This document shows positions 5,670-61,892 of a DNA stretch of 64,000 nt, in pieces. This DNA comes from a phage. A program made the position numbers and the translations under genes. The notes beneath the pieces were generated by a model, which saw nothing but the letters and a program-made list of their open reading frames with translations, searched no databases and was not told the DNA's origin. Each line of letters begins with the position of its first letter. Positions within the stretch are counted from its first letter, which is position 1. The stretch lies in the sequence record PZ386969.1. One strand, given 5' to 3'.

Positions 5670-7054
5670 TCGAAAACAGAGAGACCCAAGACGGTATTGT
5701 AACACCGTCAACAACATTTGACCTGAAGTATATGGCGATACTCCCTCATACACCCCAGGGCGGATCACCAACGCCATATGACCTGACGGCGTTGTTTGAG
5801 GAGTTCAACGTCTTCCAGGATCTGGGTCTTGAAGGGAAGTCATCTCCATCACTTACAGCCAATGTCTTGATAAAAGAAGGGTGGGACATTCTTGACACAA
5901 TGCCTATCTTGGGTGGTGAAGAAGTTGTGGTGTCATTCAAGAGTCCGGCGGCCTCGGAATACACCACTCTATCCCTGCGCGTAGCGCGTGTTGGGCGCGT
6001 AGCTGATGAGTCCAACAGCTCGTCCAAGAAAGCATTCTGGTTACACATGGTGACCACCGATGCCTACAAGGACAGCATGATCCGCTGCTCCCTCGGTCTT
6101 GAAGGTTCGTATTCTGACATGGCGAAGGCAATCTTCAATCAGTTGGAGTCGCGCACCAAGTTCGAAGACATCGACCCGTCATATGGTATTCAAGAGCGGT
6201 TCGCCACCCCGCTCTGGCCTGTGCTGCGATCTATTGATTATATGGCAAGCCGTTCTTATGACGAATTGTTCATGCCATTCGTTTTCTATGAAGACTTCAA
6301 TGGCTATCACTTCAAGAGCCTGACGACGTTGTTCAACCAGGGCAGCCAGTCATTGACGGCAGAAGAGAAGCAGGAACTGGCTCAGCAGAACAAGTTATTC
6401 CGTGATCCTCAGGACGCACCGCTCATGCAGGATAACAACTTCAACTCTGAGCGCTTTATGCGCACGATCATCAAGGCAGAGAAGAAGCTGGCGCGTGACC
6501 AGTTCATGGCAAACTACCGCGATGTCCTGGCGGTGAACGAGCGCGTCTACGACTTTGAGACCAAGACAGTCACCCCAACACAGCGCATCTATACTGAGTG
6601 GTTTGCAGAGACGGCTCACCTTGATCCGTTCCCGATGTTCTCAGATGAATTCAATCGTCAGAACGTCCGTTACATTGAAGCCCAGCCGGATGGAGCGGAG
6701 CAGATTGATTATGCTCGTCGTGTTATCAACTTCAGTCTTGCCAGCACTGTGATGCGCGTGTTGCTCGTTGGTGATAACCGCCTGAACGTCGGTCAGGTGT
6801 TCTACGTCGAAGACCAGTCCAACCGTCCTAAGAAGAACGAAAACCTGGCAGAGTTAAGTAAGCTATCGACAGGCCACTATATCGTGACCAAAGTGCGTCA
6901 CAAGATTTCCCGCCTAACCAAAGATTATCAGTGTATCGCTGAGATTGCCAAGGACAGTTTGCTGGAGCAGGTGCTTCCACCTCAGACCAATCAGACAACT
7001 GCTTCCACCACTACTCCTCAGGCGATTGAGAAAGGCCAAGCACAGAAGGTTTAA
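5666..7054 (+). CDS. virion structural protein (baseplate hub-like, tentative)
   Basis: ATGA overlap with upstream gene; 462 aa; sits immediately upstream of the tape-measure-like gene. Confidence 0.45.
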   Translation: MIENRETQDGIVTPSTTFDLKYMAILPHTPQGGSPTPYDLTALFEEFNVFQDLGLEGKSSPSLTANVLIKEGWDILDTMPILGGEEVVVSFKSPAASEYTTLSLRVARVGRVADESNSSSKKAFWLHMVTTDAYKDSMIRCSLGLEGSYSDMAKAIFNQLESRTKFEDIDPSYGIQERFATPLWPVLRSIDYMASRSYDELFMPFVFYEDFNGYHFKSLTTLFNQGSQSLTAEEKQELAQQNKLFRDPQDAPLMQDNNFNSERFMRTIIKAEKKLARDQFMANYRDVLAVNERVYDFETKTVTPTQRIYTEWFAETAHLDPFPMFSDEFNRQNVRYIEAQPDGAEQIDYARRVINFSLASTVMRVLLVGDNRLNVGQVFYVEDQSNRPKKNENLAELSKLSTGHYIVTKVRHKISRLTKDYQCIAEIAKDSLLEQVLPPQTNQTTASTTTPQAIEKGQAQKV

Positions 7055-11918: not shown

Positions 11919-12452
11919 TCATGAACCCTCCGCCCAGACAAAGCCGTATTTGTTCAGTAGATCCACGGTTTCACCACGAGCGCGAGCCACGATAGATTCT
12001 ACTGATTCTTCCACCTCGAGTGGTGGGCAACCAGCCTTTTCGTACGTGTTAAGCAAGAGAGCAAGTTCTTTTACAAACTCTTCTTGTTCCTCTCCTCCAA
12101 AGAACCACATCCGCAGATCGTCGCGTTCCCCGTGCTTGTTCAGGGAAGCCATATTCACGTACACGTAATCAGTTTTCTGAACAACGCCGTTTATCTCCGG
12201 CCATCGCAACCCAGCCATCGCATAATTGAAGAATTCCGAAGGGGTGACTTCATCCGACAAATAATACAAACGGAAGTCACCGCTGGGGCCATGTTTGCAA
12301 GTTCTATCCAGCATTATTTTGTGGATGTCAATACGGTCTCGCTTCAAGACTTCCCGTTTCTTCAGTCGACCTCTCAGCCAGGCACTGCCAATACACAAAA
12401 GAACGAAAGCAGTAGCACCAGTGAGTATGTTGAAAGAATCAATAATGTTCAT
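11919..12452 (-). CDS. membrane-anchored protein (hypothetical)
   Basis: ORF 11919..12479; upstream ATG lies inside a perfect hairpin, so start moved to ATG (MNIIDSF) with GGGGA RBS; N-terminal TM helix ILTGATAFVLLCIGSAWL. Confidence 0.4.
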   Translation of the reverse strand: MNIIDSFNILTGATAFVLLCIGSAWLRGRLKKREVLKRDRIDIHKIMLDRTCKHGPSGDFRLYYLSDEVTPSEFFNYAMAGLRWPEINGVVQKTDYVYVNMASLNKHGERDDLRMWFFGGEEQEEFVKELALLLNTYEKAGCPPLEVEESVESIVARARGETVDLLNKYGFVWAEGS

Positions 12453-12493
12453 AAGATCCCCGAAGTGATAGAGGGGCATAAGCCCCTCTGATG

Positions 12494-13102
12494 TTATTTG
12501 CTCAGGCTGGCGAGGTAGTTGTCGGCTTCGATAGACGACGGGCTGTTGGCGGAGTAGCTCGAATCAGCGATTTCGGTTTCGCGCAGGATGGCATCGATAT
12601 CGATGGTGGTCATACCAGCGGCATAATCGATATCTTCAGGGAGCACCAGACCCAGGTCGTTCGTCTCTTTCTGAACACGAACCAGCTCGAGATTGGACTT
12701 GACTTCGTCCAGTTTGTCACCCAGCTGGATGATCGCACCGTTCAGTTTGTCGCTGCTTGCTTCGATGTCCTTCACCTGAGCCAACAGGGCTTCACCGATA
12801 CGGCGGCGATGCAGAATAATCAGGGCGTCGGCGCGGGTTGGTGTGACACCACGAGCGATGGCGTCCTTCAGAACTTCTTCGCGCTTGGCGGCTTCACTTA
12901 GGTTCTGTTCTGCGGTCTTCTTCAGCTTGACGCCGTTGCGGACGTTGGTGACACGGGCTTCCTCCAGGCGACGGATTTCGTCAGACAGCTTGCGAGCAGC
13001 CAGGTTCAGGCGCTTTTCGGTGTCGGTCAGTTTATCCAGACCTGCGGTGACGTTAGCTTCAACAGTGGTGAAGATGCGTTTCAGTAAGTTTTTCAGTGAC
13101 AT
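12494..13102 (-). CDS. PspA/IM30 (phage-shock protein A)-like protein
   Basis: 202 aa all-helical; N-terminal pattern MSLKNLLKRIFTTVEANVTAGLDKLTDTEKRLNLAARKL parallels E. coli PspA N-terminus; GAGGA RBS. Confidence 0.45.
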   Translation of the reverse strand: MSLKNLLKRIFTTVEANVTAGLDKLTDTEKRLNLAARKLSDEIRRLEEARVTNVRNGVKLKKTAEQNLSEAAKREEVLKDAIARGVTPTRADALIILHRRRIGEALLAQVKDIEASSDKLNGAIIQLGDKLDEVKSNLELVRVQKETNDLGLVLPEDIDYAAGMTTIDIDAILRETEIADSSYSANSPSSIEADNYLASLSK

Positions 13103-13119: not shown

Positions 13120-13461
13120 TTATTTCTTCGGGGGTTCAATTGAGGTGAAAGAATCCTTCCAACTCTTGAATTTTTCAACCAGGGCTTCTTTACCCAGCTT
13201 GTCATTTGACACGCTGTGAATATAGGCGAATGCTCCATAGCCGGATCCTGGCATAGCCTTGCAGATGCGCAGACTGACCAAAGAATCTCCTACGGAAACA
13301 AGATAGTGGTCACGACGATTGTTCAGGGCATAGTGGTTGTCGTGAAACTTGTCAACAATAACACAGTTCTGAGGTTCGACGTCAATCGGTAGCCCGTTGG
13401 CTTCGGATCCACCGCGCCCAAGCACGCAGCCTGGGAATAATGTTTCTACGAGTGTAGTCAT
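13120..13461 (-). CDS. hypothetical protein
   Basis: 113-aa ORF with AGGAA RBS; a TATAAT -10-like box lies upstream. Confidence 0.4.
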   Translation of the reverse strand: MTTLVETLFPGCVLGRGGSEANGLPIDVEPQNCVIVDKFHDNHYALNNRRDHYLVSVGDSLVSLRICKAMPGSGYGAFAYIHSVSNDKLGKEALVEKFKSWKDSFTSIEPPKK

Positions 13462-14020: not shown

Positions 14021-15222
14021 AACTTCCTCAATTTAGCTCTGGTGACCTGAGTTTGTTTAACGCCGTTGTACTCAGTCAGTTCTTTAACACGACCACGGAT
14101 GATCATATCACCCTGCAAGAACTCTGTATCCATATAAGAGGTCTTCCAGGTAATTGTATTGCCTTCTGCTGTTTTGAAAGTAAACAGGTAGCTATCACCA
14201 TATTCATTGGAGAAGAGGAAGGTGCGCTTGTCGAACCTGACTTGCACTTCCAGCATTTCACCGACTTCACCCACCCATTTGTTCTCCGCCTTGCGGTCAG
14301 TACGAGGACGATGGATGTAATCGTAATACTTCTTGGCACCCCAGCGGACTGTGTTGTTATCCTTGATGAGGTGATAGCCGGGTTCACACATGCGTTTCAG
14401 GCGAACATTGAACTCATTAGATTCGGACAGCGCACTGATGAAAAGCTTCATATGGTACATTTCCGACTCGGCATCTTCACGGTATTCGTGTGCCTTGTTT
14501 ACGAAATACTCTTCATCGGAACCTGCTTTTGGTTTCTGATGAGACCGGACATAGCCCAGTACTTTGTCAAACAGTTCAGACTTGATATCCACGCCTGCTA
14601 GCATCACCTGGAAGCATGCGCGCAGGAAACTGTGGGTGTCGACGAAGCGCTCATTTTGGACGCGATATATACCCTCTGGGTCGTCCTCGTCTGGCATGAA
14701 GAACTCTTGGATTTCCAGATAGTAAGACATAATCGCGTCAAGGGACTTCTGATGAGGCACATAATGATGCATACAGGTGCTACCAATCAGCATCTGGGTA
14801 TGCGTTTCCTCATTTTCAATCACATACGTGTTCTTGCGACGGATGACTAGATTGCAATGCTGACACCAAGAGACGTTCTCTGTCTCGAAGTGACGGATGA
14901 AGTCAGGATTGATGTTGTCGGACAGGCGGTTAAGAATAACCTTTGGATATTCGTGATTGAACTGACCGATGATCTTCCAGCCACCATAAGAGACGGGGCG
15001 GTCAATGCCTTCGCCTTCGAGAGTAACAGGTTTCCACCAGTGAGTAAGGATCTCACCAGTGAAGTCGCGGGTGTGGGTTTTGAAGGGTTCACCATAAGTC
15101 ACAGTCGGAAACGGAACACCCAACCTTTCGGCAGTGCGCTCGAGCTTCTTCAGTCGCTCAACTACCAACCCTTCATTGTCGATCGGAATATTGAATGTTT
15201 TGACGTTCATTTCCAGCCTCAT
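14017..15222 (-). CDS. hypothetical protein with Cys/His cluster
   Basis: ORF track start is TTG; start moved to ATG (MRLEMNV); WCQHCN...CMHH motif; about 402 aa. Confidence 0.45.
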   Translation of the reverse strand: MRLEMNVKTFNIPIDNEGLVVERLKKLERTAERLGVPFPTVTYGEPFKTHTRDFTGEILTHWWKPVTLEGEGIDRPVSYGGWKIIGQFNHEYPKVILNRLSDNINPDFIRHFETENVSWCQHCNLVIRRKNTYVIENEETHTQMLIGSTCMHHYVPHQKSLDAIMSYYLEIQEFFMPDEDDPEGIYRVQNERFVDTHSFLRACFQVMLAGVDIKSELFDKVLGYVRSHQKPKAGSDEEYFVNKAHEYREDAESEMYHMKLFISALSESNEFNVRLKRMCEPGYHLIKDNNTVRWGAKKYYDYIHRPRTDRKAENKWVGEVGEMLEVQVRFDKRTFLFSNEYGDSYLFTFKTAEGNTITWKTSYMDTEFLQGDMIIRGRVKELTEYNGVKQTQVTRAKLRKL

Positions 15223-15253
15223 GATGTAGTTGTAACTCTTCAATACAGATTAA

Positions 15254-15282
15254 ATATTAGGCGATTATTTCTTGAAAGTAAA
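15254..15282 (-). promoter_or_regulatory. early promoter C (-35 TTTACT, 17-nt spacer, -10 TAATAT)
   Basis: Minus strand ACTTTACTTTCAAGAAATAATCGCCTAATATTT upstream of the gene starting at 15222. Confidence 0.45.
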
Positions 15283-15292
15283 GTTATTGAAG

Positions 15293-15320
15293 TTAAAAAG
15301 CCCAGTACTTGACTGGGCTT
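15293..15320 (-). terminator. intrinsic terminator
   Basis: Minus strand AAGCCCAGTCAAGTACTGGGCTTTTTAA. Confidence 0.6.
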
Positions 15321-33740: not shown

Positions 33741-34202
33741 CTACTCCGCCAGGGTGATCACAACCATATTTAAGACTGTGTCGATAGCTCGGCCTGTTTC
33801 CTCTTCATGGAGGGTTTCGGCGCGGAGGTGCACGTCGGTGATGAAATTGTCGATGTGCATTGACGTCAGATACGGGCGGTGTTGACTGACCGGGCGGTTG
33901 ACCAGAACATAATTGCGCAATGTGTTGAAGTCCTGATGAGAGCACCCCGTTGTATCGATACGAAGGAAGCGTTCGTTGTGGCTTGTCTTCAACTCAGTCA
34001 CCTTGCCGAGGTAGACCAGAGGTCCATTGCGACCGATACGGAACATGACATCAACAACAGACTTGAAGATTTCGCGTTCAATCAGTGCGGTGGGTGACCA
34101 GCAGATCTCTTCTTTGTCGTCGGCGTACAGGGTGTCGATCACCAGAGGGAGTTGAATGTAACCGAAGTTGTGCAGTGGGTTGGTGAGTACTTTGTTTGTC
34201 AT
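33741..34202 (-). CDS. hypothetical protein
   Basis: ATG preceded by AAGGAACTATATC (conserved start context); 153 aa. Confidence 0.45.
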   Translation of the reverse strand: MTNKVLTNPLHNFGYIQLPLVIDTLYADDKEEICWSPTALIEREIFKSVVDVMFRIGRNGPLVYLGKVTELKTSHNERFLRIDTTGCSHQDFNTLRNYVLVNRPVSQHRPYLTSMHIDNFITDVHLRAETLHEEETGRAIDTVLNMVVITLAE

Positions 34203-34213
34203 GATATAGTTCC

Positions 34214-34453
34214 TTATTTCACATATTCAAGGGCTTTGGTCAGACCAAAGCGAAGACGTTCACGAGCAACCTTCAATTCTTCTCGGTCTTTACCTTGACC
34301 GTTGTTGTCGTGATTCATAATGATTTCGTGGTTGACCACGGCGCGGAGGGTTCTGAGTTCACCTATCCAATATGCCTTGTTAGCAGCACAGCCGCGTTTG
34401 GCTGTCATGGCGTGGTATTTCATTGAGGTGTCGTAGACTTCAGAGTCGGTCAT
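34214..34453 (-). CDS. hypothetical protein
   Basis: ORF track start is TTG; start at ATG (MTDSEVY) preceded by AGCAGGAACTATATC; early promoter upstream. Confidence 0.45.
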   Translation of the reverse strand: MTDSEVYDTSMKYHAMTAKRGCAANKAYWIGELRTLRAVVNHEIIMNHDNNGQGKDREELKVARERLRFGLTKALEYVK

Positions 34454-34504
34454 GATATAGTTCCTGCTGTTCAATTTGTGGCGAATGCCAATGAATTACT
34501 GGGA

Positions 34505-34533
34505 AGTATAAGCGCAGGGATTATAGAAGTAAA
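34505..34533 (-). promoter_or_regulatory. early promoter A (-35 TTTACT, 17-nt spacer, -10 TATACT)
   Basis: Minus strand reads GCTTTACTTCTATAATCCCTGCGCTTATACTTC about 45 nt upstream of the ATG at 34453; -35 overlaps the upstream terminator tail. Confidence 0.5.
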
Positions 34534-34557
34534 GCCCCTCAATGAGGGGCTTTGGCT
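34533..34557 (-). terminator. intrinsic terminator (after glutaredoxin gene)
   Basis: Minus strand AAGCCCCTCATTGAGGGGCTTTACTT. Confidence 0.6.
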
Positions 34558-34559: not shown

Positions 34560-34784
34560 TCAGCGTTTAAGGCTGGCGGCGAGTCCATTAACGTCGGTCA
34601 CGGTCTGGTCAGCGAGGACGATTACAGGCATCGACACGCGCGGCTTACCCGTCAACTGCTGAAGTTCTTCCAGCCGGTAATCTTTGTCCAGCTTGAGGAT
34701 CTTGTGTTCCAGCCCTTTCATTTTGCACAGATTTTCGGCTGTTACACACTGAGCGCAACCTTGTTTGGAATAGATCGTAATCAT
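34560..34784 (-). CDS. glutaredoxin-like protein (NrdH/glutaredoxin family)
   Basis: MITIYSKQGCAQC: CxxC redox motif in thioredoxin-fold context; 74 aa; directly downstream of nrdB. Confidence 0.7.
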   Translation of the reverse strand: MITIYSKQGCAQCVTAENLCKMKGLEHKILKLDKDYRLEELQQLTGKPRVSMPVIVLADQTVTDVNGLAASLKR

Positions 34785-40537: not shown

Positions 40538-41026
40538 TTAGGCTAGTTTGCTCACCAGATCTTCAACTGCGTCGGCGCTCAGTTTACCCATTTTGACGTA
40601 CTGAGCTTTTGCTTCGCCGCCAGCAGCTTTCACGATGTCGGTGTTGTCGTATCCCTTCTTAGGGAAGACCATCACAGAGAAGGAACCGTTGTTCAGTGGG
40701 TTCAGCTGGATGCGACCTTTACCGACTACGATGGTGCCGTAAGTTTCGGTCTTTGCTTCGACAATGTGAATGTCGTGGCCCAGGCTTTTCAGCATACCAA
40801 CTTTGTCGGCAGTCTTAGCAACCACAGCTTTATCAACCACAACCTGCTCTACCAGGGTGAAGCCGTTAGTCGCTTTCACTTTACCGTTCAGCAGGTTCAT
40901 GAAGGAAGTTTTGCCACCAGTGAAGCCAGCTGCCTGAGCGATGCGGAACATTTCAACTTTAGCAACTTCGGTGTTCAGTTCGAAAGAGATGGTGCCGTTG
41001 GTGATCAGAGTTTTGGTAGTAGCCAT
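40538..41026 (-). CDS. hypothetical protein (strong early promoter)
   Basis: ORF 40538..41137; start moved to ATG (MATTKTL) with GAGGAA RBS; strong early promoter with A/T-rich upstream element. Confidence 0.45.
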   Translation of the reverse strand: MATTKTLITNGTISFELNTEVAKVEMFRIAQAAGFTGGKTSFMNLLNGKVKATNGFTLVEQVVVDKAVVAKTADKVGMLKSLGHDIHIVEAKTETYGTIVVGKGRIQLNPLNNGSFSVMVFPKKGYDNTDIVKAAGGEAKAQYVKMGKLSADAVEDLVSKLA

Positions 41027-41098
41027 GATGTAATTCCTCATAATGTAGTTGGTACGTTTCACTTTCATTCGGCGGTGTGTTGCCGCCCTATGTGAATT

Positions 41099-41165
41099 AT
41101 AATAGTGCGCTATTATTGAATAGTAAAGTCTTTTCAATAAATTTTTAAAATATTTTTGAAATATT
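41099..41165 (-). promoter_or_regulatory. early promoter D with A/T-rich upstream element
   Basis: Minus strand GACTTTACT-17 nt-TATTAT, preceded by an A/T-rich run (TTAAAATATTTCAAAAATATTTTAAAAATTTATTG); drives the gene starting at 41026. Confidence 0.45.
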
Positions 41166-43517: not shown

Positions 43518-46502
43518 TCAGATCTTAATCTGCATGTTGCCACCCAGGGACTGCTCGTACTCGCTGTATGCGCTTTCCCCGTTGTCTTGTGACCACTGGT
43601 CAGACTGCTGGGCGCGAGCCAGAGTCATCAGGTTTGGTTCAGTCGGGTTGTAACCCTTGGACTTCGCATCCCGGTACAGTGTCTGCAGGTACTGGTTGGC
43701 GCGGTCAATCTGAGCTTTGAACTCGCGATATGCCCCTTCAGTTGTGTTGCGGCGGAAGGTGATATCCCAGTCCACGTTCAGAGTCTGACCATCACGGCTT
43801 GCATAGATCTGCCAATCCAGGTCGCGACCTTTTGGTGCGTTGTCGCGAATGGAGTCGGCGTATGCCGCAAGGTCGTCCTTCGGATTGTGCGACGTGCTTT
43901 TCAGAAATAGTGCATGACCCATACCACCGTTTGGCTGAAGAGACCATTTTCCTGTTTCTCTTCCCAGGCGTTCTATGTTGTTGAGTTGGTTTATCGACAA
44001 TTCAGAAGAGTCAAATAATACCACATCACGTTTTTTGGGGGTTCTCACATAAGGGGTGAGATCGATGTCGATCATCCGGTTTATAAATTCTACCACTTCA
44101 GCTTGTTTCTTGGGCAATGTGATATTGATATCCGGCGTGTTTGCTACTTTCTCCAGGCGTTTATTTTCTGCGCTTATCATGGACAGCATAATTTGTGTAA
44201 CTTTGCCGTCAGACAAGTTGTAATCATTCCAAATCACTTCACCTTTATCCGTGATGGTTATATCGTTCAAGAACACCTGGTTTGGGTTGTATGACTGACT
44301 TTTCAACTGTTGGAGGTTTCTGGAAAGATATACCATTTTTGATGAAATCTCATCAATCACACTCTGGACCATATCTTTGTTTAAAGGAAGTTCATATGTC
44401 TTCGGATTGTTCAGGGTACGCCCTTTCTGAGAGACAATTGGGGTGAATGCAACTTTACCTTTGTCGTAGTAATAGGTCACGTTGGTTATCATAGAAGTAC
44501 CGGCGTATTTTCCCGTTTCGGGGAAATTGACATCCCACCGAATGGACATACCGTTGACAGTCTCACCAAACACCATGGCGTTGCTTGGTATCTTCAGGGT
44601 TCCAGAGTTGACCAGATCAGCGCCTTGGGCATTCAGGTCGATAGAACCATAGATGGCCCCGGTGATACGATCTTTCAGCATCAGGGTCTTGTCGCCCTTC
44701 TCTGGGATGATTTCCAGCGGGTGCTTGCCACGCGGAGGTTCTTTGATGAGTTCCAGTAGAGCAGTGTTCCCTGGCTTCACACGATTCAGGACAGCGTCGG
44801 ACACTGTCAGAGTCCAGTTTGCGGTTTCCACATAACCCCAGCCCCGAGAACGGCGAATGGCTTTGATAGGATATGGAGCGCTTGTTGGCACTGCGCTAAT
44901 TTCCCATTTGCCAGTGTACTGGGTCTTAGCAACCTCAAAGATGGACGCAATTACCGCCTTGGCGACGTCACGGGCGCTACCTTTGGCCACGTTCTCCTCT
45001 TCAGCAATTTCGCTGAAAACTGAGTATTGAACGAAACCAGCGAGGACGTTTGTGAAGTTGACAACGATAACCAACCCGCCTGCCGTCGTGTAACGACCAG
45101 CGCCCACGCGACGGATGTTTTCACCAGGAAGAATAGAAGTGTCCAGCCCAACGTTGGTATCAATGATACCCAGAACACGAGCGATGAAACCGCTGTCACG
45201 TAATTGATCAACACTGGTTGCACCCTCGGTCGAATCTGATGTGGATTTAGACACTTTGTTCAACTTGATAGAGACAAGGGTTTCCCCGTTGACACCGATG
45301 ATATCCCATTCAGTACCCTGCTCGTTCGAGGTGCGGGCAATCTTGCGCTTTGAATTGATGGCACCTTCGTAACGCCCGTTCTTGACCACAACAGAGGCTG
45401 TGGCAGCATCAGCCGCACTTGCTGCATTTGAAAAGTCTGGGTCAGAAATACTGATGTCGACGTCACCGTTTTGAGAACGCATGCGAACGCCGTTTTTGAA
45501 TCGTTCCACGTTTACTTCCCGAGCACCAAGTCGTTTGGCATCAATAACAGCAGTTCCAGAACCGATAATGTTGGCTGGGTTATTTCTGTCCGAACCTGCC
45601 GGCACAACAGGCGCAGATTTCTGTTGAGAACCTTTCCAAAATTTTGTGGACGCCGTGGTGAAATCATTCAGGATACTGATAGGGACTTGTGGTAATTTCA
45701 ACTGACGAGCAATGAAATCAGCACTTTGCCCACGCACAGGTTTCTCATTCATGTATGCGCCAACATACACGCCCGGCTCATTGTAGTGGGGAGCGATATT
45801 TGCCGTATTCGTGCGGCCTCTCTCCTTACCAGCCCATATCAACATGGGCTGATCCCCGTTTGAAGTTAATTTCCATCCGTTGGAATTATCAACAGAAGAT
45901 GACACACCCACATCCGGAGTATTGTTCTGAACCGGAACGTCACCGACCTTGTCTGGATCATCCCAGGTGATACCCTGCATCTTCGGACCGTCGAATACCT
46001 GAGCCGGATCTTTGCCCTTACGAACTAGCCACACATAACCACGGTCAGGGACAGGCGCGTAGGTCAGGTCCATGACATTCAGTTTCTGCTTCAGACCGGA
46101 CTGGCGGATGATCTTAGGAATCAGGGTCATACCGCGATCCAGCGCTTTCTTCGAGAAGTTGACAGCATAGCCATCGATAGTTTTGCCCAGAGGAGTCGCC
46201 ATGAATTGTTTGGTCGCTTCGATCATGGAAGCAATAACGCGCATTGGGTTCTTGAAGCGAGCGATGGCGTCAGGATAGACGGAGCCGCGCTTCTGGCCGA
46301 TGAAAACCTGACGAACGCTCTTGCCCAGTCCCTGAGGAGTATAGAACTGAATGCGGTATTCCTTATCATCTTCGTCGACGAAGGTGAAGAACACATCGCC
46401 TGCGTTCTTCTTGCCCATGGTCAGCTCATACGGAGCGGAGTTGAACGCTTCGTCCAACTGATCTCTTTCCTGCATGAACTGGAGGAAACTTAGCTTTGAC
46501 AT
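43518..46502 (-). CDS. large hypothetical protein (994 aa), possibly virion-associated
   Basis: Long uninterrupted ORF with AGGAG RBS; Gly/Asn/Ser-rich; no polymerase, P-loop or nuclease motifs recognised. Confidence 0.5.
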   Translation of the reverse strand: MSKLSFLQFMQERDQLDEAFNSAPYELTMGKKNAGDVFFTFVDEDDKEYRIQFYTPQGLGKSVRQVFIGQKRGSVYPDAIARFKNPMRVIASMIEATKQFMATPLGKTIDGYAVNFSKKALDRGMTLIPKIIRQSGLKQKLNVMDLTYAPVPDRGYVWLVRKGKDPAQVFDGPKMQGITWDDPDKVGDVPVQNNTPDVGVSSSVDNSNGWKLTSNGDQPMLIWAGKERGRTNTANIAPHYNEPGVYVGAYMNEKPVRGQSADFIARQLKLPQVPISILNDFTTASTKFWKGSQQKSAPVVPAGSDRNNPANIIGSGTAVIDAKRLGAREVNVERFKNGVRMRSQNGDVDISISDPDFSNAASAADAATASVVVKNGRYEGAINSKRKIARTSNEQGTEWDIIGVNGETLVSIKLNKVSKSTSDSTEGATSVDQLRDSGFIARVLGIIDTNVGLDTSILPGENIRRVGAGRYTTAGGLVIVVNFTNVLAGFVQYSVFSEIAEEENVAKGSARDVAKAVIASIFEVAKTQYTGKWEISAVPTSAPYPIKAIRRSRGWGYVETANWTLTVSDAVLNRVKPGNTALLELIKEPPRGKHPLEIIPEKGDKTLMLKDRITGAIYGSIDLNAQGADLVNSGTLKIPSNAMVFGETVNGMSIRWDVNFPETGKYAGTSMITNVTYYYDKGKVAFTPIVSQKGRTLNNPKTYELPLNKDMVQSVIDEISSKMVYLSRNLQQLKSQSYNPNQVFLNDITITDKGEVIWNDYNLSDGKVTQIMLSMISAENKRLEKVANTPDINITLPKKQAEVVEFINRMIDIDLTPYVRTPKKRDVVLFDSSELSINQLNNIERLGRETGKWSLQPNGGMGHALFLKSTSHNPKDDLAAYADSIRDNAPKGRDLDWQIYASRDGQTLNVDWDITFRRNTTEGAYREFKAQIDRANQYLQTLYRDAKSKGYNPTEPNLMTLARAQQSDQWSQDNGESAYSEYEQSLGGNMQIKI

Positions 46503-46577: not shown

Positions 46578-46913
46578 TTATTTTTGAACTTGGGCTACAG
46601 ACATCGCCCAGAGCGGGAGGGTGTGGGGGTCCAGGGCTTCCAGTAGATATTCGACGCGCTCTGACATGATACCTTCAGGGAAGTTTACTTCTTCTGGTTC
46701 GTTGTTGGCCGTCCAACCCAAGGTCAGTCCTTCAGCGTGATGGATGATATAAACGAAGTCGCTCGATTCGTAGTCCTTTTCCATCAGGTCGAAGAACGCT
46801 TCCATCTCTTCGTCGGAGAAGTAGTAGATGCGAGGTACAGAGCCGTCAGCAAAGTGCTCAGCACCCTGGAAGGCAAACATGTCATCGGCGGTGAAGTTCT
46901 TGAGTTGTGTCAT
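46578..46913 (-). CDS. hypothetical protein
   Basis: ORF track start is TTG; start at ATG (MTQLKNF) preceded by AGCAGGAACTATATC; early promoter upstream. Confidence 0.45.
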   Translation of the reverse strand: MTQLKNFTADDMFAFQGAEHFADGSVPRIYYFSDEEMEAFFDLMEKDYESSDFVYIIHHAEGLTLGWTANNEPEEVNFPEGIMSERVEYLLEALDPHTLPLWAMSVAQVQK

Positions 46914-46961
46914 GATATAGTTCCTGCTATTCAAGTTGGTGTCGTACTGCTTATGGAATGA

Positions 46962-46990
46962 AGTATAGGGAAGGATATTGAAGAAGTAAA
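46962..46990 (-). promoter_or_regulatory. early promoter B (-35 TTTACT, 17-nt spacer, -10 TATACT)
   Basis: Minus strand CCTTTACTTCTTCAATATCCTTCCCTATACTTC; same architecture and near-identical downstream leader as promoter A. Confidence 0.5.
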
Positions 46991-47010
46991 GGGGCGAAAG
47001 CCCCTTTTAT
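46988..47010 (-). terminator. intrinsic terminator
   Basis: Minus strand AAAAGGGGCTTTCGCCCCTTTACTT. Confidence 0.6.
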
Positions 47011-47020: not shown

Positions 47021-47659
47021 TTACGGCGTCAGATTCACAACCGGAATGTGGGATCGAATACCTGCGATGATGTCCTTCAGCTGAGGCTTCCATCCATCCA
47101 CCAAACGGGGGAGAGCGATAGCGCCAGGCTGGACCAAAATGATGTCGCTGCCTGTGATATTGTGCTGAGGGAACTGGGCAAGGTACTGCTCCATGGTGAC
47201 ACCCTCATCAATCAGAACTGCACCGACGTCAGACGATGCGTAGGTTGCACCCAGGCCGTCAACACCCCATGCCAAGATACCCCAGTCAGGGATGTTGGCT
47301 TCAGATGTGATGGTGAATCCAAACACGGTGTTCAGCGAAGTAAAGGAATAGACATCGTGGGTGATGTCATACACTAGATACCCCTTGGCCAGCATATCGG
47401 CAAAGATCGCGTCCGTATCGCCAGCAGCCGGAGTCGGCACAGTAAACAACAGCTCGCCATCAGGAGGAGCAGGATACGTGCCGAGGGCATAGAGGCACCA
47501 TGCGTCAATACACTTCTTGATAAATGCCTCTGGTGCGACATAATCGGCAAGGCGAACCGTGCCTGAGTACTCGGATACGATGATGCCTTCCTTCGCACCC
47601 TGTAGAGCAATGAAGACCAAGATATGTTCATATCCGGCCTGAGATGGAGTGATGTTCAT
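47021..47659 (-). CDS. hypothetical protein
   Basis: ORF 47021..47755; start moved to ATG (MNITPSQ) overlapping the upstream stop (TAATG). Confidence 0.45.
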   Translation of the reverse strand: MNITPSQAGYEHILVFIALQGAKEGIIVSEYSGTVRLADYVAPEAFIKKCIDAWCLYALGTYPAPPDGELLFTVPTPAAGDTDAIFADMLAKGYLVYDITHDVYSFTSLNTVFGFTITSEANIPDWGILAWGVDGLGATYASSDVGAVLIDEGVTMEQYLAQFPQHNITGSDIILVQPGAIALPRLVDGWKPQLKDIIAGIRSHIPVVNLTP

Positions 47660-48273
47660 TATCTTGTCCTCTTCAGTTTCTCTATTGTGTGCTTGTTCAT
47701 GGCGATCACCTGAGGATCTACCTCGGAGATGGTCCGGCCTTCGAAAGACACACATTTCTGAAGATATTTAGCTTTCTTCACGACGTCAGCAGCATAAGCG
47801 TTCGATGCGGGATTACGGGCGAAGCCAGCATTGTAAGAGGAGAGGGATTTGCGGATATTCTGATTGTGATAGGTCAGCCAGAACTGCATCTCATCGAGGG
47901 CGGCTTGCGCGGCATATTCTTGGTCGGTCAGCAACTTTATGGCGACATTGGCATAGCACTTGCGATTCTTACAACCTTCGCGATCACCAACTGTCTTCAC
48001 CTTGTTCTGAAAGGCTCCCATGTTGGCCGCCTTGAGGCCGTATCGCATTGACACTACATCTTCACCAGCGCGGCTCTCTCGCCAAGATATGGCGGCCAGA
48101 GTGTAGCCAAGATCTTGTGTCTTGCCTACATGATAGGCGGTTGCCATCGTATTAAGTTGTTGCTCGGAGAAATTATAAACACATTGACTTGTATTTTGGG
48201 AAGCGTGCACATTCCCGCTGGCAATGGTAAAGGTCACGGACAAGGCCATGGCCTTCAACGTTGTCATCGTCAT
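47659..48273 (-). CDS. secreted lytic transglycosylase-like protein (SLT domain)
   Basis: N-terminal signal peptide (MTMTTLKAMALSVTFTIASGNVHA); SLT-like motifs ESRAG, GAFQ, SYNAGF. Confidence 0.5.
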   Translation of the reverse strand: MTMTTLKAMALSVTFTIASGNVHASQNTSQCVYNFSEQQLNTMATAYHVGKTQDLGYTLAAISWRESRAGEDVVSMRYGLKAANMGAFQNKVKTVGDREGCKNRKCYANVAIKLLTDQEYAAQAALDEMQFWLTYHNQNIRKSLSSYNAGFARNPASNAYAADVVKKAKYLQKCVSFEGRTISEVDPQVIAMNKHTIEKLKRTR

Positions 48274-51473: not shown

Positions 51474-52581
51474 CCAGTGTATTCAGGCGTTGTTGGGCAG
51501 CGTTGTAGAAGTGCTCTGCCAGCTTGCAGACGTTTTCAGGGCGCTGGATGTTGTTCCCGGCGCGGATATCCTTCTTTAGGACTTCCACTGCGTCGGTTGC
51601 CACCATCTCTTCGGTGACCTCAACCTTCTCAGCCGCTACGGTAATAGTCCGGTCGATGAAGTTGTAGTCAATACACTTACAGCGCTTCATGGCATCACAG
51701 AACTTTTCATAATGCTTAGCATTGTCGCGATTCTGTACAATAACCTTAACGATTTGCCCTTCAATACCCAAGCATGTGTTCAGCCATTCCGGGTCGATCC
51801 AATTGCCTTCTTCATCGGAGGACAACTTGGTGTAGTCATATTCCACATAGCGGAACAGCGTCTGGTGCTCGGCGTTCGGGATAAAGACCTCACCACCGCG
51901 CATGTCGTCCACATAGAAGCCACGGTTGGTGCCGTCTTTGTAGTCTTCCCAATTCAGGTGATACGGAGTCCCAAGATACTGAATGTTACCTTCCATCGAA
52001 CGGGTATGGAAATGCCCCGTGTCGACCCTGGTAAACTTGGAAAGCAACGCAACGTCGATCTGACCGTGATCACAAGTAGAGGACTGGTACATTTTGAACC
52101 CTGCCAACTCCAGATGCGCAAAACAGTACTCGGCGTCTGTATCTTGTAACGCCTTAATAGACGCATCATAGTTCTCCTTGTTGATCCACGGTAGGAGCAG
52201 AGTCTTGACACCCTCGATCATCACTTCGGTCGGTTCGCTATAATAGCAGTATACATCTGGGTCGAGTTCGTTCAGGTAGGATGGCCAGTTGATGCGGTTA
52301 GACTCTTCCAGGGTGATGTCGTGGTTGCCAACAATACCATTCCACTTGATCCCAGCAGCTTTCAGCGCCGGAGTCAGCTCATCTTTCAACCAGTCCTTGT
52401 CACGCCCGTACATGAATTTGCGGACGTCAAATGTGTCACCAAACTGCCAGACCTCATGGATGTCGGAGGCGACAAGTTCAGGGATGAAATAATTGATGAG
52501 GTAGTTCTTGATGAAGTCGCGAACGTAACGGGAACCATTACGGCTCCCGATATGCAGATCGCCGATTTTAGCAATCGCCAT
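51466..52581 (-). CDS. SbcD/Mre11-like recombination nuclease subunit (T4 gp47-like)
   Basis: Metallophosphatase motifs IGDLHIG, GNHD and HxH-type segments; overlaps the SbcC-like start. Confidence 0.85.
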   Translation of the reverse strand: MAIAKIGDLHIGSRNGSRYVRDFIKNYLINYFIPELVASDIHEVWQFGDTFDVRKFMYGRDKDWLKDELTPALKAAGIKWNGIVGNHDITLEESNRINWPSYLNELDPDVYCYYSEPTEVMIEGVKTLLLPWINKENYDASIKALQDTDAEYCFAHLELAGFKMYQSSTCDHGQIDVALLSKFTRVDTGHFHTRSMEGNIQYLGTPYHLNWEDYKDGTNRGFYVDDMRGGEVFIPNAEHQTLFRYVEYDYTKLSSDEEGNWIDPEWLNTCLGIEGQIVKVIVQNRDNAKHYEKFCDAMKRCKCIDYNFIDRTITVAAEKVEVTEEMVATDAVEVLKKDIRAGNNIQRPENVCKLAEHFYNAAQQRLNTLDA

Positions 52582-53359
52582 TATTCTTTTTCTCCCGTTC
52601 TTCTAATCTTTGTTTGAGGGCTTCCCAATCTGGTTCCATCGCACAGATATCATCTTCCAGATTGAATTGGGTTTTGCCGAAGTCCTGATCTGAATTGTCT
52701 TCGGCCTGCGCTGTTACCGTATTCTTAGCCTGCGCCATGTATTGAAGTATACCTTTCGCAATCTTTTTATTCGATTCTGCTAGACGAGCTGCCTCCACCT
52801 TCTCTCGCTCCTTCTGCCTTTGAGCGTCCTTTTTGTTCTCAAAGTTACCGATACGTTCACGGAAGTCCATGCCAATCCCTGTCGCGTCAACAAAGATCTC
52901 TTGTTTGAAGTCGGGATCGTCTGCCAGGCCTGCGAACCCACCCGCCTCTTCAAATGAGCGCAATTTAATGTACGTGTGCTCTTCTTCGATGTTCAGTTTA
53001 CGGGCAAATGAGCGATCAGCACACATGGTCACCCAAGAAAAGAAGTTGATCTTCCCTTTCTTTCCAATGTGTTCGACGTCAAATGTGTGGAGGTAGCGCA
53101 GGATGTTGACTATTGCTTCAGAGACCATGTCTTCACGGAAGGGATAGTCACGATAGTTGTAGCGGGTGCTCATCTTGGTGATGATGCGCTGGACCTGTAG
53201 AGCAACATAGTTGGGGATCTTTGGAAGCCTGGTGCCTTCAGCCAGAGCCTTCTTACGAGCAGGGATCCAATCACGAAGGATACTGATGACACGCTCGTTA
53301 TCTTCGTCTGTGAAATATTTGACGACATTCTCCCCTCTGTCCACGAAGCTCATTCCCAT
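52568..53359 (-). CDS. late-transcription sigma factor (T4 gp55-like)
   Basis: N-terminal region (ILRDW...YNYRDY...INFFSWVTMCADRSF) parallels T4 gp55 (IIDW...FNFSGY...AYITQACFNAF); adjacent to gp47-like gene as in T4. Confidence 0.65.
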   Translation of the reverse strand: MGMSFVDRGENVVKYFTDEDNERVISILRDWIPARKKALAEGTRLPKIPNYVALQVQRIITKMSTRYNYRDYPFREDMVSEAIVNILRYLHTFDVEHIGKKGKINFFSWVTMCADRSFARKLNIEEEHTYIKLRSFEEAGGFAGLADDPDFKQEIFVDATGIGMDFRERIGNFENKKDAQRQKEREKVEAARLAESNKKIAKGILQYMAQAKNTVTAQAEDNSDQDFGKTQFNLEDDICAMEPDWEALKQRLEEREKKNNGDC

Positions 53360-53370: not shown

Positions 53371-53898
53371 TCAGATACCGATAAATTCATCAAAAGATCC
53401 AACAACCTTCTTCACCGAGATCTTGTCATTCTCAATCAGGAAGTTGCTGTCGTTTTTGGCTGCTGTGGCCCAGTCATCGGCAAGTTCGTTGCCTTCGTGT
53501 CCCGCATGACCCTTAACCCATTTTAGTTCAACATCACAAATTGAACAAACGAGATCATAGATTCTGAACAGATCTTTGATGAGTTCAACGTTCTTTTCTG
53601 GGAAACCCTGATACTCCCACTTCGTTCGCCATTCGGTGACACTCTTGATGGCATATTGGCTGTCAGACCAAATTGTTGCCTTTGGTATTCTGCGCTCACC
53701 CTTTCCTGAGAATGCCCACAGTAGCTTCAATGCGTTGGTCACACCCAACAACTCGGCGATATTGTTGGTGGACGGGGGAGGTAGATGGCCGAAGAACACC
53801 TTCCATTGCATACCCGTTATTGGCCTGATGACAAATGCCCAGCCTGCGGCCTGGTTGGTCTTCGGGTTAGAACCCCCGTCAGAATAAATTTCTATCAT
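53371..53898 (-). CDS. ribonuclease HI
   Basis: Start moved to ATG (MIEIYSDGG); RNase HI motifs SDGG, NNIAELLG, WSDSQY, KGHAGHEGNELADDWA. Confidence 0.85.
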   Translation of the reverse strand: MIEIYSDGGSNPKTNQAAGWAFVIRPITGMQWKVFFGHLPPPSTNNIAELLGVTNALKLLWAFSGKGERRIPKATIWSDSQYAIKSVTEWRTKWEYQGFPEKNVELIKDLFRIYDLVCSICDVELKWVKGHAGHEGNELADDWATAAKNDSNFLIENDKISVKKVVGSFDEFIGI

Positions 53899-53900
53899 GA

Positions 53901-53908
53901 TATAAATA
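53901..53908 (+). promoter_or_regulatory. T4-type late promoter box TATAAATA
   Basis: Exact TATAAATA about 36 nt upstream of the ATG at 53944; overlaps the RNase H start region on the opposite strand. Confidence 0.5.
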
Positions 53909-53943
53909 TCCCAAACTGGTTTTATAGAAAGAGGAATGAAACT

Positions 53944-57175: not shown

Positions 57176-57468
57176 GATTTGACCTCCGATTTGGAGATTA
57201 ACGATTCCATCTCCTGACGACCAATGACAGTCTCAACTTTGTCTTCTTCAACCATCATTTCATTCAGAAGATCGTACCCCAGGACTTGTACACCAAAAGA
57301 CTTTTTGTTCAGTTCTGCCTCAATATTGAGAACTCGCTGAACCGTCAGGCCACCGGAAGAGAACGGTACTGGATAGAAGGCGGAACGCACTTGGACACAC
57401 CCATTTACGCTGTAACGAACCAGCAAGACATCACACCATACACCAGCCATATTATACCTCCACCGCAT
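57172..57468 (-). CDS. hypothetical protein
   Basis: 98-aa ORF overlapping neighbours at both ends. Confidence 0.4.
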   Translation of the reverse strand: MRWRYNMAGVWCDVLLVRYSVNGCVQVRSAFYPVPFSSGGLTVQRVLNIEAELNKKSFGVQVLGYDLLNEMMVEEDKVETVIGRQEMESLISKSEVKS

Positions 57469-58114
57469 GAGACTTCAGGAGTTCATCAATCTCTTTCTGT
57501 CCCATGTATGAGAACGGGGTGCGCTGGTAGAACGCCCAGAGTACTAACTGGACAACAGCACGGGAACGGGTTTCGGCCGTCATCACCAGGCCACTGAAAT
57601 GAGGAGACTCAGCTGTCCATTGTATCTCTTCGCCCAGGTCTTGATTACAGGTCACCGAGATGCGGAACTTGTTGCACAGATTGTCGACTTCTTTGTACGC
57701 ATCGGTAGACACACGAAGTTGTTCCGCATGTGCCCACGGAGTTGTGACGATTCTTTCACCCATCACTTTATCAGAGATAAACCAATCAATACATTCGGTA
57801 AACTCACTAAAATGGTCGATACGATAAATGCAGTCTCCCCCTTCCATAGAACGCATGGCATGATAGCGAGCGTCGATTTCGTTGTTGTGCATAGCGTTGA
57901 AGTCGATGAACACGCGACGCGCCAGCACAACATCTTCTGGTTGAAGTGCCAGGAAATCGTTCAGGCGGCTATAATGGAGGATATTGGAACCGTCGTGGTC
58001 ACGTGTGCAATATGCGTAATGGCTACCGATACGGGCGTGGGCAATATAAGACAACGGGGCGAAGAATAATCCGTCAGGATCAGGACCGACGATAATAGAA
58101 TAAAGTTTTTCCAT
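57452..58114 (-). CDS. hypothetical protein
   Basis: ORF track start is TTG; start at ATG (MEKLYSI) preceded by GAGAGACTATATC. Confidence 0.45.
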   Translation of the reverse strand: MEKLYSIIVGPDPDGLFFAPLSYIAHARIGSHYAYCTRDHDGSNILHYSRLNDFLALQPEDVVLARRVFIDFNAMHNNEIDARYHAMRSMEGGDCIYRIDHFSEFTECIDWFISDKVMGERIVTTPWAHAEQLRVSTDAYKEVDNLCNKFRISVTCNQDLGEEIQWTAESPHFSGLVMTAETRSRAVVQLVLWAFYQRTPFSYMGQKEIDELLKSHAVEV

Positions 58115-58170
58115 GATATAGTCTCTCAAATGAAAGGGCAGCTTTATGATAAGCCGCCCGAGGTTATTGA

Positions 58171-59040
58171 TTATTGGAAATCGCCAACATACATGTTCAG
58201 CTTGTCATCCCAATTCAGAACGACACGGATCGTTCCAGTATCTTCTGGGAAGGTCAGTTTGTCACACATGGCGCGATTAACATAAGTCCCACTCTGGTTC
58301 ACGTTGTAGTCCTTGCCTTGCATGATACCAAAACGCTTGAAGTCGCGAGTGACCATCATGTTCAGAGTTGTCCAAGGGATTGCATCGCGCAGGGCTTTGC
58401 ACAGGACGATCTTGCCATCCGACCTGAACGACACAAACAGCTCGTTGGCGACACGACGGCGAGTAGGCGGTTCAAGTTCACGCAGGGAAATGAATTGTGA
58501 ATTCTTTACCTTTTCTGCCAGCGTCTGTACTTCTGCTGGATCCGGCTTGAACGGCTCCACTGAAGAGTCAGACTTCATCACAACGTCACCCTTGCGCTTC
58601 TCGACCAATTGCTCCACAGCCTTTTGACTCACGGGTGGGAGGTATTTGGACTCAGGAACAACCGCTGGCTTGATGACAGGGCTTGCATCTGGTTTCGCCT
58701 TTGGGGTACTCCGAGCCGCACGCAGCTTTTCCTGGGCTTCCAGAATGCGCTCTTGACGAGAAAGCGGAGCCTTTGGGGTGATCTTCGTACTGAAGTCAGA
58801 AACTCCGACCCAGTCACCCTGGTCATTACGCTTGGCGACCAGAGTCAGTTTGTGGATGATACCCTGAAGTTTGCTCTCACGCAAGTTGTCGGCATACCAG
58901 AACTTCGCGCCCATCTCGAACTTCTCGGCGAAGATCACGCGAGCGTCTTCGTGTACCAACATAACTTTGGCTGCGTTGGGGGCAAAAGCCTTATTCTTTT
59001 CGATAATCGCCGCAGCGATTGTTTTGGTCAGGAGCATCAC
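58171..59040 (-). CDS. hypothetical protein
   Basis: 289 aa; two globular parts joined by a Pro/Lys-rich linker. Confidence 0.45.
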   Translation of the reverse strand: MMLLTKTIAAAIIEKNKAFAPNAAKVMLVHEDARVIFAEKFEMGAKFWYADNLRESKLQGIIHKLTLVAKRNDQGDWVGVSDFSTKITPKAPLSRQERILEAQEKLRAARSTPKAKPDASPVIKPAVVPESKYLPPVSQKAVEQLVEKRKGDVVMKSDSSVEPFKPDPAEVQTLAEKVKNSQFISLRELEPPTRRRVANELFVSFRSDGKIVLCKALRDAIPWTTLNMMVTRDFKRFGIMQGKDYNVNQSGTYVNRAMCDKLTFPEDTGTIRVVLNWDDKLNMYVGDFQ

Positions 59041-60842: not shown

Positions 60843-61098
60843 TCAGGATACGAGCAGTGTCGAAACCTTCCCCGCCCGTGTTCAACAGCTTGGTCAGATC
60901 ATCAAGAGTATAGACAGGACCAAGATCAGCCTGGCGAAGAACGAACTCGAGAAGCCCGTAGAGCGCCGATTGGAATCGGGAGTTGTCGATGTCGTTCTTG
61001 ACTTCCATCAGGCGGACAACATTGGCAGACTGGACATAACTCAGCTGAGTCTTACCTTTCACCATGACTTTCACGGAACGGCGTTGTTCAGGCGTCAT
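60811..61098 (-). CDS. hypothetical protein
   Basis: 95-aa ORF overlapping neighbours at both ends. Confidence 0.35.
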   Translation of the reverse strand: MTPEQRRSVKVMVKGKTQLSYVQSANVVRLMEVKNDIDNSRFQSALYGLLEFVLRQADLGPVYTLDDLTKLLNTGGEGFDTARILIDGRPEEDEV

Positions 61099-61473
61099 AA
61101 TGTTCCACCCCCGACAGAGATCAAGAACTCTTCTTGCATGGTCTTGACCGGGTGGTGGTTGCGGGTTTCGAACATGAAGCCCCAGCCACCGTCGGCGACG
61201 TTGCCAAAGGTCTTGACACCAAAGGACTTCGTCCCGTTGGAGCAGGAATAGATGTCCAGGACGTATGGGCTACCCTGATTGTCGATCCCACGATTCACGT
61301 CGTCTGATACGCAGCGCTCAATCATCTTCCCGTTCTTATACAGAACGAGGTCTTGACCATACGCCTTGAAAGCATAAACACCGTTGGTAGACACCCCAGT
61401 GATGACAGGAGGGGCGGAAACAGCAGCAAAGGAAGCTCCCAGCAGGGCAACAGCGAGGATTAACTTTTTCATG
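61095..61473 (-). CDS. secreted protein (signal peptide)
   Basis: ORF 61095..61517; start moved to ATG (MKKLILAVALLGASFAAVSA) preceded by AGAGACTATATC. Confidence 0.45.
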
Positions 61474-61531
61474 ATATAGTCTCTTGGTTTCAAATGGGCG
61501 GGGTAATCATACCCCACCCAAAGTTATAGAA

Positions 61532-61771
61532 TTAACTGATGTGCTTCAGAAGAGCGAAGAGGATCGCGGCCTTGGCCTTTACCTTTCCCACGATGCCTGT
61601 CTCGACATCAACTTCTTCAGCAACCCACTCCTTTCCCTTCTTGCTGATGATCACGTCACGGCGCTGGGCATATACCTCTTTGGTCGCATACACGCGGCGG
61701 AATCCTTTGGCGCGGAGCAAGCCCCAATTACGATCAATTTCTACTGAGGTTTCTACCATTTTGTTCTTCAT
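61532..61771 (-). CDS. hypothetical protein
   Basis: 79-aa basic protein; ATG preceded by AGATTATATC; early promoter upstream. Confidence 0.4.
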   Translation of the reverse strand: MKNKMVETSVEIDRNWGLLRAKGFRRVYATKEVYAQRRDVIISKKGKEWVAEEVDVETGIVGKVKAKAAILFALLKHIS

Positions 61772-61822
61772 GATATAATCTTACCTTTCAACCCGGTGAA
61801 CCCATCGTTCGCCAGTTATTGA

Positions 61823-61852: not shown

Positions 61853-61860
61853 CCCTAAAG

Positions 61861-61885: not shown

Positions 61886-61892
61886 ACTTCTG

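Follow-up and report, generated by a model that had tools for sequence, protein, structure and literature searches.

The 64,000-nt stretch of phage DNA in record PZ386969.1 (hereafter the window) carries at its intergenic sites at least seven mutually similar cassettes, each ending in a ribosome-binding module that runs into the start codon of a minus-strand gene. We assign a probability of about 0.7 to the interpretation that these cassettes form a composite intergenic family in the Ackermannviridae that resembles the promoter-early stem-loop (PeSL) cassettes that T4-type phages carry (Arbiol et al. 2010, PMC2839356; Comeau et al. 2014, PMC4122927) and doubles as a junction for gene exchange. 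The original prediction, made from the letters of the window, had described a promoter-leader cassette duplicated before the genes starting at 34453 and 46913 and a start context shared with six further minus-strand genes. It missed the main point, which is that the module, on comparison with related phages, is the junction where accessory genes come in, drop out or are exchanged for others.

The window contains the motif ACTATATCATG five times without mismatch; every copy lies on the minus strand and ends in the ATG of an open reading frame (ORF), with starts at 34202, 34453, 46913, 58114, and 61472. When up to one mismatch was allowed, eight matches were found, compared with 0.81 ± 0.88 expected from 100 dinucleotide shuffles of the window, none of which reached eight. 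Two of the one-mismatch sites are gene starts (15222, ACTACATC; 61771, ATTATATC), and the third, at 6876 on the plus strand, lies inside a 462-aa ORF (5666..7054) and is a chance match. The 16-mer GGAACTATATCATGAC is present three times, at 34198..34213, 34449..34464, and 46909..46924. Among the six further genes originally assigned to this context, those starting at 34202, 58114, and 61472 (the last had been placed at 61473) carry it exactly, whereas the other three carry it only in part: gene 61532..61771 has one mismatch, gene 53371..53898 has only TATATCATG in common (TTTATATC, two mismatches), and gene 52568..53359 (GAGGACTATCATA-ATG) bears no more than a loose resemblance.

The similarity extends well upstream of the start context. 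Over TTGAA(C/T)AGCAGGAACTATATCATGAC, at 34449..34474 and 46909..46934, the sequences are identical at 25 of 26 positions, and a global alignment of the 34453 and 46913 cassettes from the -35 box to ATG+5 gives z=9.9, a score equaled by none of 2000 shuffles; the same alignment without its last 31 nt gives z=4.9. Over the cassette pairs, z ranges from about 5.7 to 9.9, including values of 5.8 and 8.1, the latter for 58114 against 61472. The proteins encoded by the genes at 34453 and 46913 show no BLASTP alignment at E≤100 and are unrelated. The duplication proposed for this pair is confirmed, and the cassettes at 61771, 15222, and 41026 belong, more distantly, to the same homologous family.

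Each cassette is built in the same predicted order: a GC-rich terminator hairpin, an overlapping sigma-70-like promoter, a short leader, and a stereotyped ribosome-loading region consisting of (T)TTGAA, 3-8 nt, AGGA or GAGA, ACTATATC, and an ATG followed by A. Two types can be distinguished. In Type A (starts 34453, 46913, 61771, and 15222, and 41026 with a weaker spacer), the U-tract of the hairpin enters TTTACT, which is followed by a 17-nt spacer, TAT(A/T)(C/A)T and then TC, and a leader of ~40-45 nt that ends in (C)AC(C)AA(A/C)TTGAA, 3-5 nt, AGGA or AAGA, ACTATATC, and ATG-A. In Type B (starts 58114 and 61472), TTCTATAA/TCAATAA is followed by a hairpin with the -10-like hexamer TATGAT or TATCAT in its loop, and then by (A)TTTGA(A) and GAGA-CTATATC-ATG. 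The features are as follows, with SD denoting the Shine-Dalgarno sequence and MFE the minimum free energy.

34531..34553, minus strand: terminator-like hairpin AAAGCCCCTC-ATT-GAGGGGCTTT (-16.6 kcal/mol, z=-4.0), directly past the stop codon of the glutaredoxin gene (34560..34562), with its U-tract overlapping the -35 box.
34505..34533, minus strand: sigma-70-like candidate promoter, TTTACT (34533..34528)-17-TATACT (34510..34505), called by consensus match only.
34449..34474, minus strand: 26-nt translation-initiation module TTGAACAGCAGGAACTATATCATGAC, the 3' part of a ~45-nt leader, free of pairing in the MFE fold and 96% conserved in the Kuttervirus Det7; SD AGGA at 34465..34462, spacer ACTATATC at 34461..34454, ATG at 34453..34451.
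34214..34453, minus strand: orfX, a 79-aa accessory ORF (PHROG 5206, function unknown), present or absent among close relatives.
34198..34213, minus strand: second copy of GGAACTATATCATGAC, at the start of gene 33741..34202, direct-repeat partner of 34449..34464.
46988..47007, minus strand: terminator-like hairpin AAAGGGGC-TTTC-GCCCCTTT after gene 47021..47755 (-13.5 kcal/mol, z=-4.2).
46962..46990, minus strand: sigma-70-like candidate promoter TTTACT-17-TATACT, paralogous to 34505..34533.
46909..46934, minus strand: 26-nt module TTGAATAGCAGGAACTATATCATGAC heading the 111-aa gene 46578..46913 (PHROG 9866, function unknown).
58109..58175, minus strand: Type B cassette, then TTTGAGAGACTATATCATG heading gene 57452..58114.
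58136..58159, minus strand: hairpin GGGCGGC-TTATCATAAA-GCTGCCC with the -10-like TATCAT in its loop.
61468..61533, minus strand: Type B cassette, then TTTGAAACCAAGAGACTATATCATG heading gene 61095..61472.
61496..61519, minus strand: hairpin GGGTGGGG-TATGATTA-CCCCGCCC.
61767..61886, minus strand: Type A cassette, TTGAAAGGTAAGATTATATCATG heading gene 61532..61771 (one-mismatch motif); hairpin at 61867..61886, TTTACT-17-TATTAT at 61823..61851.
15218..15317, minus strand: Type A cassette, TTGAAGAGTTACAACTACATCATG ahead of the gene starting at 15222 (one-mismatch motif); hairpin at 15301..15317, TTTACT-17-TAATAT at 15254..15282.
41022..41127, minus strand: Type A candidate promoter (TTTACT-17-TATTAT, 41099..41127) and GAGGAATTACATC-ATG, start 41026, a two-mismatch variant.
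53894..53912, minus strand: RNase H gene start GGGATATTTATATC-ATG, a weak variant sharing only TATATCATG, without a cassette.

An AT-rich tract 5' of the -35 box is seen at 46913 (AAAATAATTCAATAAAA) but is not evident at 34453, where the hairpin adjoins the stop codon. Of the seven Type A promoters in the window, five lie before genes that differ from the motif at no more than two positions; among all mapped gene starts, the figure is 12 of ~87. Parts of two cassettes have been annotated before: in the GenBank record of phage LIMEstone1, the orthologue of the 46913 cassette is marked as a terminator and a 'putative middle promoter', and that of the 61771 cassette as a terminator and an early promoter.

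The 3' part of the cassette has the properties of a shared translation-initiation module, as had been suggested: an SD (AGGA or GAGA), an 8-nt A/U-rich spacer, and ATG, predicted to be mostly free of secondary structure. In MFE folds, the segment from SD to AUG contains no pairs at 34453, 58114, and 61472 and only two weak spacer pairs at 46913; at 61771, the AU of AUG and the last four bases of the spacer pair weakly with downstream codons. The initiation regions of 34453, 46913, and 61472 are no more structured than their shuffles (z +0.3 to +1.9).

The relatives of the window phage reveal how genes behave at these sites. Between 33500 and 37500, the window is 98.8% identical to Escherichia phage vB_EcoM-RPN242 (RPN242; OL656110; Ackermannviridae, Aglimvirinae); the Agtrevirus phages Ag3, SKML-39, and MK-13 match it at 92%, and the rest of the family more weakly. 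The entire window is collinear with RPN242 15018-78337, seven indels excepted, and its phage is a ViI-like, Agtrevirus-like member of the Ackermannviridae. The minus strand from ~9 kb to 64 kb holds replication and nucleotide-metabolism genes together with many small genes of unknown function, and an Rfam scan of the window at the gathering threshold gave no match.

The first exchange site lies behind the glutaredoxin gene, where the window has the order cassette, orfX, gene 33741..34202, and orfX is flanked by the 16-nt direct repeat GGAACTATATCATGAC, which stands before both orfX and the next gene. In RPN242, orfX is precisely absent and the cassette is joined straight to the second gene, which is just what removal of the repeat-flanked unit would leave. 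SKML-39 also lacks orfX cleanly, but with another leader variant (CAGCAGG, not AGCGGG), whereas MK-13 and Yersinia phage CAU_YEP3 retain it; MK-13 has an additional ORF with its own cassette ending in GGACTATATCATG. In the Kuttervirus Det7, 55 of 57 leader positions from the -10 box to the ATG are kept, while the orfX protein is only 57% identical.

Two further observations concern this cassette. CAU_YEP3 has a 4-nt duplication in the spacer (GGAACTAACTATATCATG) that lengthens the distance from SD to ATG to 12 nt before orfX. In SKML-39 and Det7, the cassette is interrupted between hairpin and promoter (equivalent to 34505-34535 of the window) by a MobB-type homing-endonuclease gene, which is flanked by a duplicated TTTACTTT (-35 box); the cassette is therefore also a landing site for free-standing homing endonucleases.

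At the other two sites, the cassette is kept and the gene behind it changes. The 46913 cassette is found in ChubbyThor (98-99% identity), LIMEstone1 (92%), CBA120 (83%, against 73% in the flanks), and a Taipeivirus (83%). It is followed by the 111-aa gene in the window and LIMEstone1, by an unrelated 130-aa gene in ChubbyThor, by an unrelated 91-aa gene in CBA120, and by the 91-aa and 111-aa types in tandem in the Taipeivirus. In LIMEstone1 and Se-B, the 61472 cassette (…GGAACTATA(T/C)C-ATG) heads denV, and the gene found at 61472 in the window comes behind a second GAGACTATAT(C/T)ATG. In MK-13 and Det7, the gene behind it is ADP-ribosylase-like and has another complete cassette copy after it; gene Y and others are also found behind the 61472 cassette. 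We compared window 61900→60950 with all phage records by BLAST and tallied the breakpoints in 60 evenly sampled records, of which 38 lose homology at query position 432 (ATG+1). Altogether, at least seven alternative downstream genes are found at the three loci, with breakpoints at the 3' end of the cassette, and the module is retained across four genera in which the coding sequences are only ~55-80% identical. None of the alternative genes at the 61472 locus is present anywhere in the window or RPN242. Pfam and PHROGs give no function for any of the proteins encoded by the motif genes, and a search for related loci with a single protein returned close relatives only.

Within the window, the segment 60950-61900 is 96.5% identical to Salmonella phage Maynard (KF669654) and only ~90% identical to the otherwise closest relatives of the window, which suggests that the two cassettes in it lie in a patch of recent recombinational origin.

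We also examined how the motif relates to translation starts in general. The complete RPN242 genome was reassembled from four annotated stretches, and the 40 nt 5' of all 195 annotated starts were tabulated. The resulting matrix shows an ordinary SD at -12..-8 and, more unusually, information in the spacer as well, with the consensus AATATATC (A-A-T-A-T-A-T-C) at -8..-1. ATC stands directly 5' of ATG in 34 of 194 genes, compared with ~1.6% expected from composition, and cassette-free late structural genes (major capsid, portal, prohead core, and baseplate wedge) are among them. ACTATATC is therefore near the preferred spacer of this phage family, an extreme form of the genome-wide consensus, and ACTATATC-ATG is most likely the preferred initiation context of the phage. 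A general preference does not account for everything, however, because exact ACTATATC occurs at -8..-1 in four copies where a position-independent matrix predicts 0.07 (194 genes); this excess links the motif genes beyond the general preference, by shared descent of their cassettes. Extended pairing of …AUC with the 3' end of 16S rRNA was checked by eye, and the register was found to be unsuitable.

We also considered ACTATATC as a -10 box or late promoter. This reading was rejected, since a promoter adjoining the ATG would strip the SD from the mRNA, and because the late-promoter-like motif of the phage family is CTAAATAC. The sequence CTAAATAC(CC) recurs 5' of structural genes in RPN242 and looks like a late-promoter motif of the Ackermannviridae. 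A different conserved upstream motif, CTAACTAAGGGATAACC / GCTAATTAGAAGAAACC / CTAATTAAGGGAAACC, on the minus strand at 60638-60654 and 46520-46540, lies before two genes, with starts at 60618 and 46502, as well as before their orthologues in three genera, and may represent a further class of promoter. Intergenic hairpins with TATAAT or TATTAT in the loop or stem occur at 22240-22290 and at RPN242 starts 52, 139, 140, and 179; examples are CTGCTATAATAGCAG and GGGGGATATAATTCCCCC, which make up a third composite form of promoter and hairpin without the ACTATATC context.

Taken as a working unit, the cassette would act at three levels. The GC-rich hairpin would end the upstream transcript, and the overlapping sigma-70-like promoter (in Type B, the -10-like hexamer inside the hairpin loop) would start a new one. 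The 3' part, unpaired at four of the five starts folded, could then serve as an open translation-initiation region of high efficiency, in keeping with a spacer preference for (A/T)A(T/C)ATC before ATG that holds genome-wide, the capsid and portal genes included. At the DNA level, because 16-30 nt are nearly identical before many genes, they could provide a homology patch where recombination removes, adds or exchanges the accessory gene that follows the cassette, and an incoming gene would be left correctly joined to a terminator, a promoter, and a ribosome site. The 16-nt repeat would be a plausible substrate for the recombination-prone, T4-like replication machinery. We infer that recombination caused the observed exchanges, and that ACTATATC-ATG is most likely kept both as a good open initiation region and because recombination homogenizes and spreads the cassette ends.

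Several observations weigh against this interpretation. Of the seven indels that distinguish the window from RPN242, the orfX one alone has the motif at its flanks; homing endonucleases, an internal deletion, and junctions of other kinds account for the rest, none of which proved to be motif-flanked on checking. With one indel in seven of the cassette kind, genes evidently turn over by several routes, the cassettes being one of them. Matches to the promoter consensus are as common in shuffled sequence (20 found, 21 expected), and experimental transcript mapping for Ackermannviridae was not found in the literature. The spacer itself drifts among orthologues (ACTACATC, ACTACACC, ACTACATT, and ACTATACC), and a conserved cassette with a changing gene behind it could also reflect merely the conserved end of the upstream block.

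The identical start contexts might also be a mere by-product of recent duplication or gene conversion, with a spacer whose sequence has no function beyond setting a workable SD distance. That the likeness of the paralogous cassettes reaches well past SD and spacer (25/26, z=9.9) fits common descent, and pyrimidine transitions are tolerated in the spacer. The same positional preferences are nevertheless seen in cassette-less genes with late promoters (the 34 ATC-ATG genes and the consensus AATATATC), and the module has been kept across the four genera despite the divergence of the coding sequences, so that we regard this explanation as unlikely. A chance or compositional effect is already refuted by the shuffle count, the start-context matrix, and the cassette alignments. 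The 14-mer GGAACTATATCATG is indeed scattered singly over many unrelated viral contigs in an IMG/VR scan, as a short word would be; in the window, however, no shuffle reaches the observed count, all exact copies lie on one strand at gene starts, the flanking homology is high (z≈8-10), and the sites are kept at orthologous positions.

The recurrent context had also been proposed as a binding site for a regulatory protein. In its most plausible form, ACUAUAUCAUGA would be the operator of a translational repressor, a homologue of RegA, that shuts off ~10 early accessory genes. The Ackermannviridae do encode such a homologue: RPN242 gp123 belongs to the RegA family (PF01818, E=2e-34) and lies beside homologues of genes 62, 44, and 45, as in T4. 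The sites of T4 RegA overlap or directly abut the AUG on its 5' side and are A+U-rich and unstructured (PMC3014915), as is the motif region, and the exact 8-mer ACTATATC is far more common than an independent start-context matrix predicts. The translation-initiation regions of the gene 44, 45, 62, and regA orthologues (RPN242 genes 123-126), which correspond to RegA targets in T4 and RB69, however, lack the motif. In T4, RegA operators carry poly(A) on their 5' side and lack a sharp consensus, whereas the motif is sharply conserved and GGAACUAUAUCAUGAC contains no poly(A) tract and bears little resemblance to the SELEX consensus AAAAUUGUUAUGUAA. The spacer drift among orthologues also speaks against an operator, and the regA gene lies outside the window, its presence in the genome of this phage being deduced from relatives. 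The proposal is without direct support, and we consider it quite improbable. Two other candidates for such regulators were rejected: the 111-aa gene 46578..46913, suspected to be RegA for its position upstream of a large gene, has no Pfam match and the real homologue is elsewhere; and the 'putative RegB' of LIMEstone1 (window orthologue 47659..48273) has no Pfam support and only a sub-threshold SLT match, so that the idea of an escape from RegB was dropped.

A more far-reaching version would make the TTGAA…GGAACTATATCATGAC module (16-30 nt) a dual-purpose adaptor, at once an operator for a repressor at the RNA level and a selected exchange site at the DNA level. We hold this to be very doubtful. 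If it were true, a RegA-type or other repressor would co-regulate ~10 accessory early genes, and the Ackermannviridae would trade accessory genes in frame with expression and control signals ready-made, a lytic-phage analogue of the integron-like gene-cassette platform.

The interpretation as PeSL-like cassettes and exchange junctions concerns a phenomenon that is already known for T4-type phages. Like the PeSLs, the present cassettes are intergenic units of ~100 bp with a stem-loop terminator, a sigma-70-like early promoter, and a 3' SD and start codon, and they are repeated at many sites, mostly before small genes of unknown function (ORFans). TTTACT-N17-TAT(A/T)(C/A)T with a stem-loop just upstream is close to the T4/PST consensus TTTACW-N17-TAYWAT; the -10 variant TATTAT fits this consensus, and TATACT deviates from it at one position. 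Among the PeSLs there are counterparts both of Type B, in which the -10 box lies within the stem-loop, and of the arrangement in which a gene lies between two copies in one phage and a relative has a single copy (two in MK-13 and Det7, one in the window). The differences are that the present cassettes occur in another family, the Ackermannviridae, and are known here from sequence; that their best-conserved part is the 3' ribosome-binding module (TTGAA…SD-ACTATATC-ATG-A), common to both types; and that their breakpoints are at the start codon, whereas the AT-rich 5' part was proposed for RB49 and phi1. The accent here is thus on the shared ribosome-binding module and the start-codon breakpoints. 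In the library that was searched, no paper contains both 'PeSL' and 'Ackermannviridae'. Genome papers on this family give generic promoter and terminator predictions only, and the CBA120 paper (2011) described the early promoters of ViI-like phages as not identifiable by informatics (PMC3184105).

In its design, the module also resembles strong phage translation-initiation regions such as the T7 gene 10 leader. It combines an SD, an 8-nt unstructured spacer of alternating A/T-rich sequence, an A/U-rich element 5' of the SD, and A-rich early codons. The leader of T7 gene 10 has the form AAGGAG-ATATACAT-ATG with an upstream A/U-rich enhancer. Its sequence is different, and the T7 element is not a repeated recombination junction.

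Some of the other differences between the window and RPN242 deserve description. A 1.8-kb insertion at 11863-13665, between the DNA ligase gene and the next upstream gene, contains three minus-strand ORFs (11919..12479, 12494..13102, and 13120..13461), and its left junction adjoins a hairpin enclosing TATAAT (CAGGGTTATAAT…TATAACCCTG) before the ligase gene. Conversely, RPN242 24683-25380 holds an HNH endonuclease gene with no counterpart in the window (9666-9672); the junction is exactly at the start codon, where the endonuclease gene takes the resident SD and ATG and supplies new ones for the downstream gene. Gene 43518..46502 encodes 994 aa (906 aa in RPN242) and has an internal length polymorphism of ~240 bp (43875-44260, compared with RPN242 58477-58619); in LIMEstone1, this region is split into several confirmed structural proteins.

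Start codons in several public records disregard the cassette. In RPN242, the annotated starts of gp042 and gp110 (15222 and 61771 in the window) lie 12 nt downstream from the ATG that is linked to the motif, denV of Se-B is annotated from an ATG within the hairpin, and a Taipeivirus record (CDS0070/0071) has the two genes behind the cassette split or fused. The cassettes help to correct such mis-called starts. They provide concrete and conserved candidates for early or middle promoter-terminator units in the Ackermannviridae, together with a consensus initiation region, and they extend the PeSL concept past the T4 family proper. They also explain part of the mosaicism of gene content in these phages, which are widely used in biocontrol and therapy, and may mark natural 'plug-in' sites that tolerate and express foreign genes.

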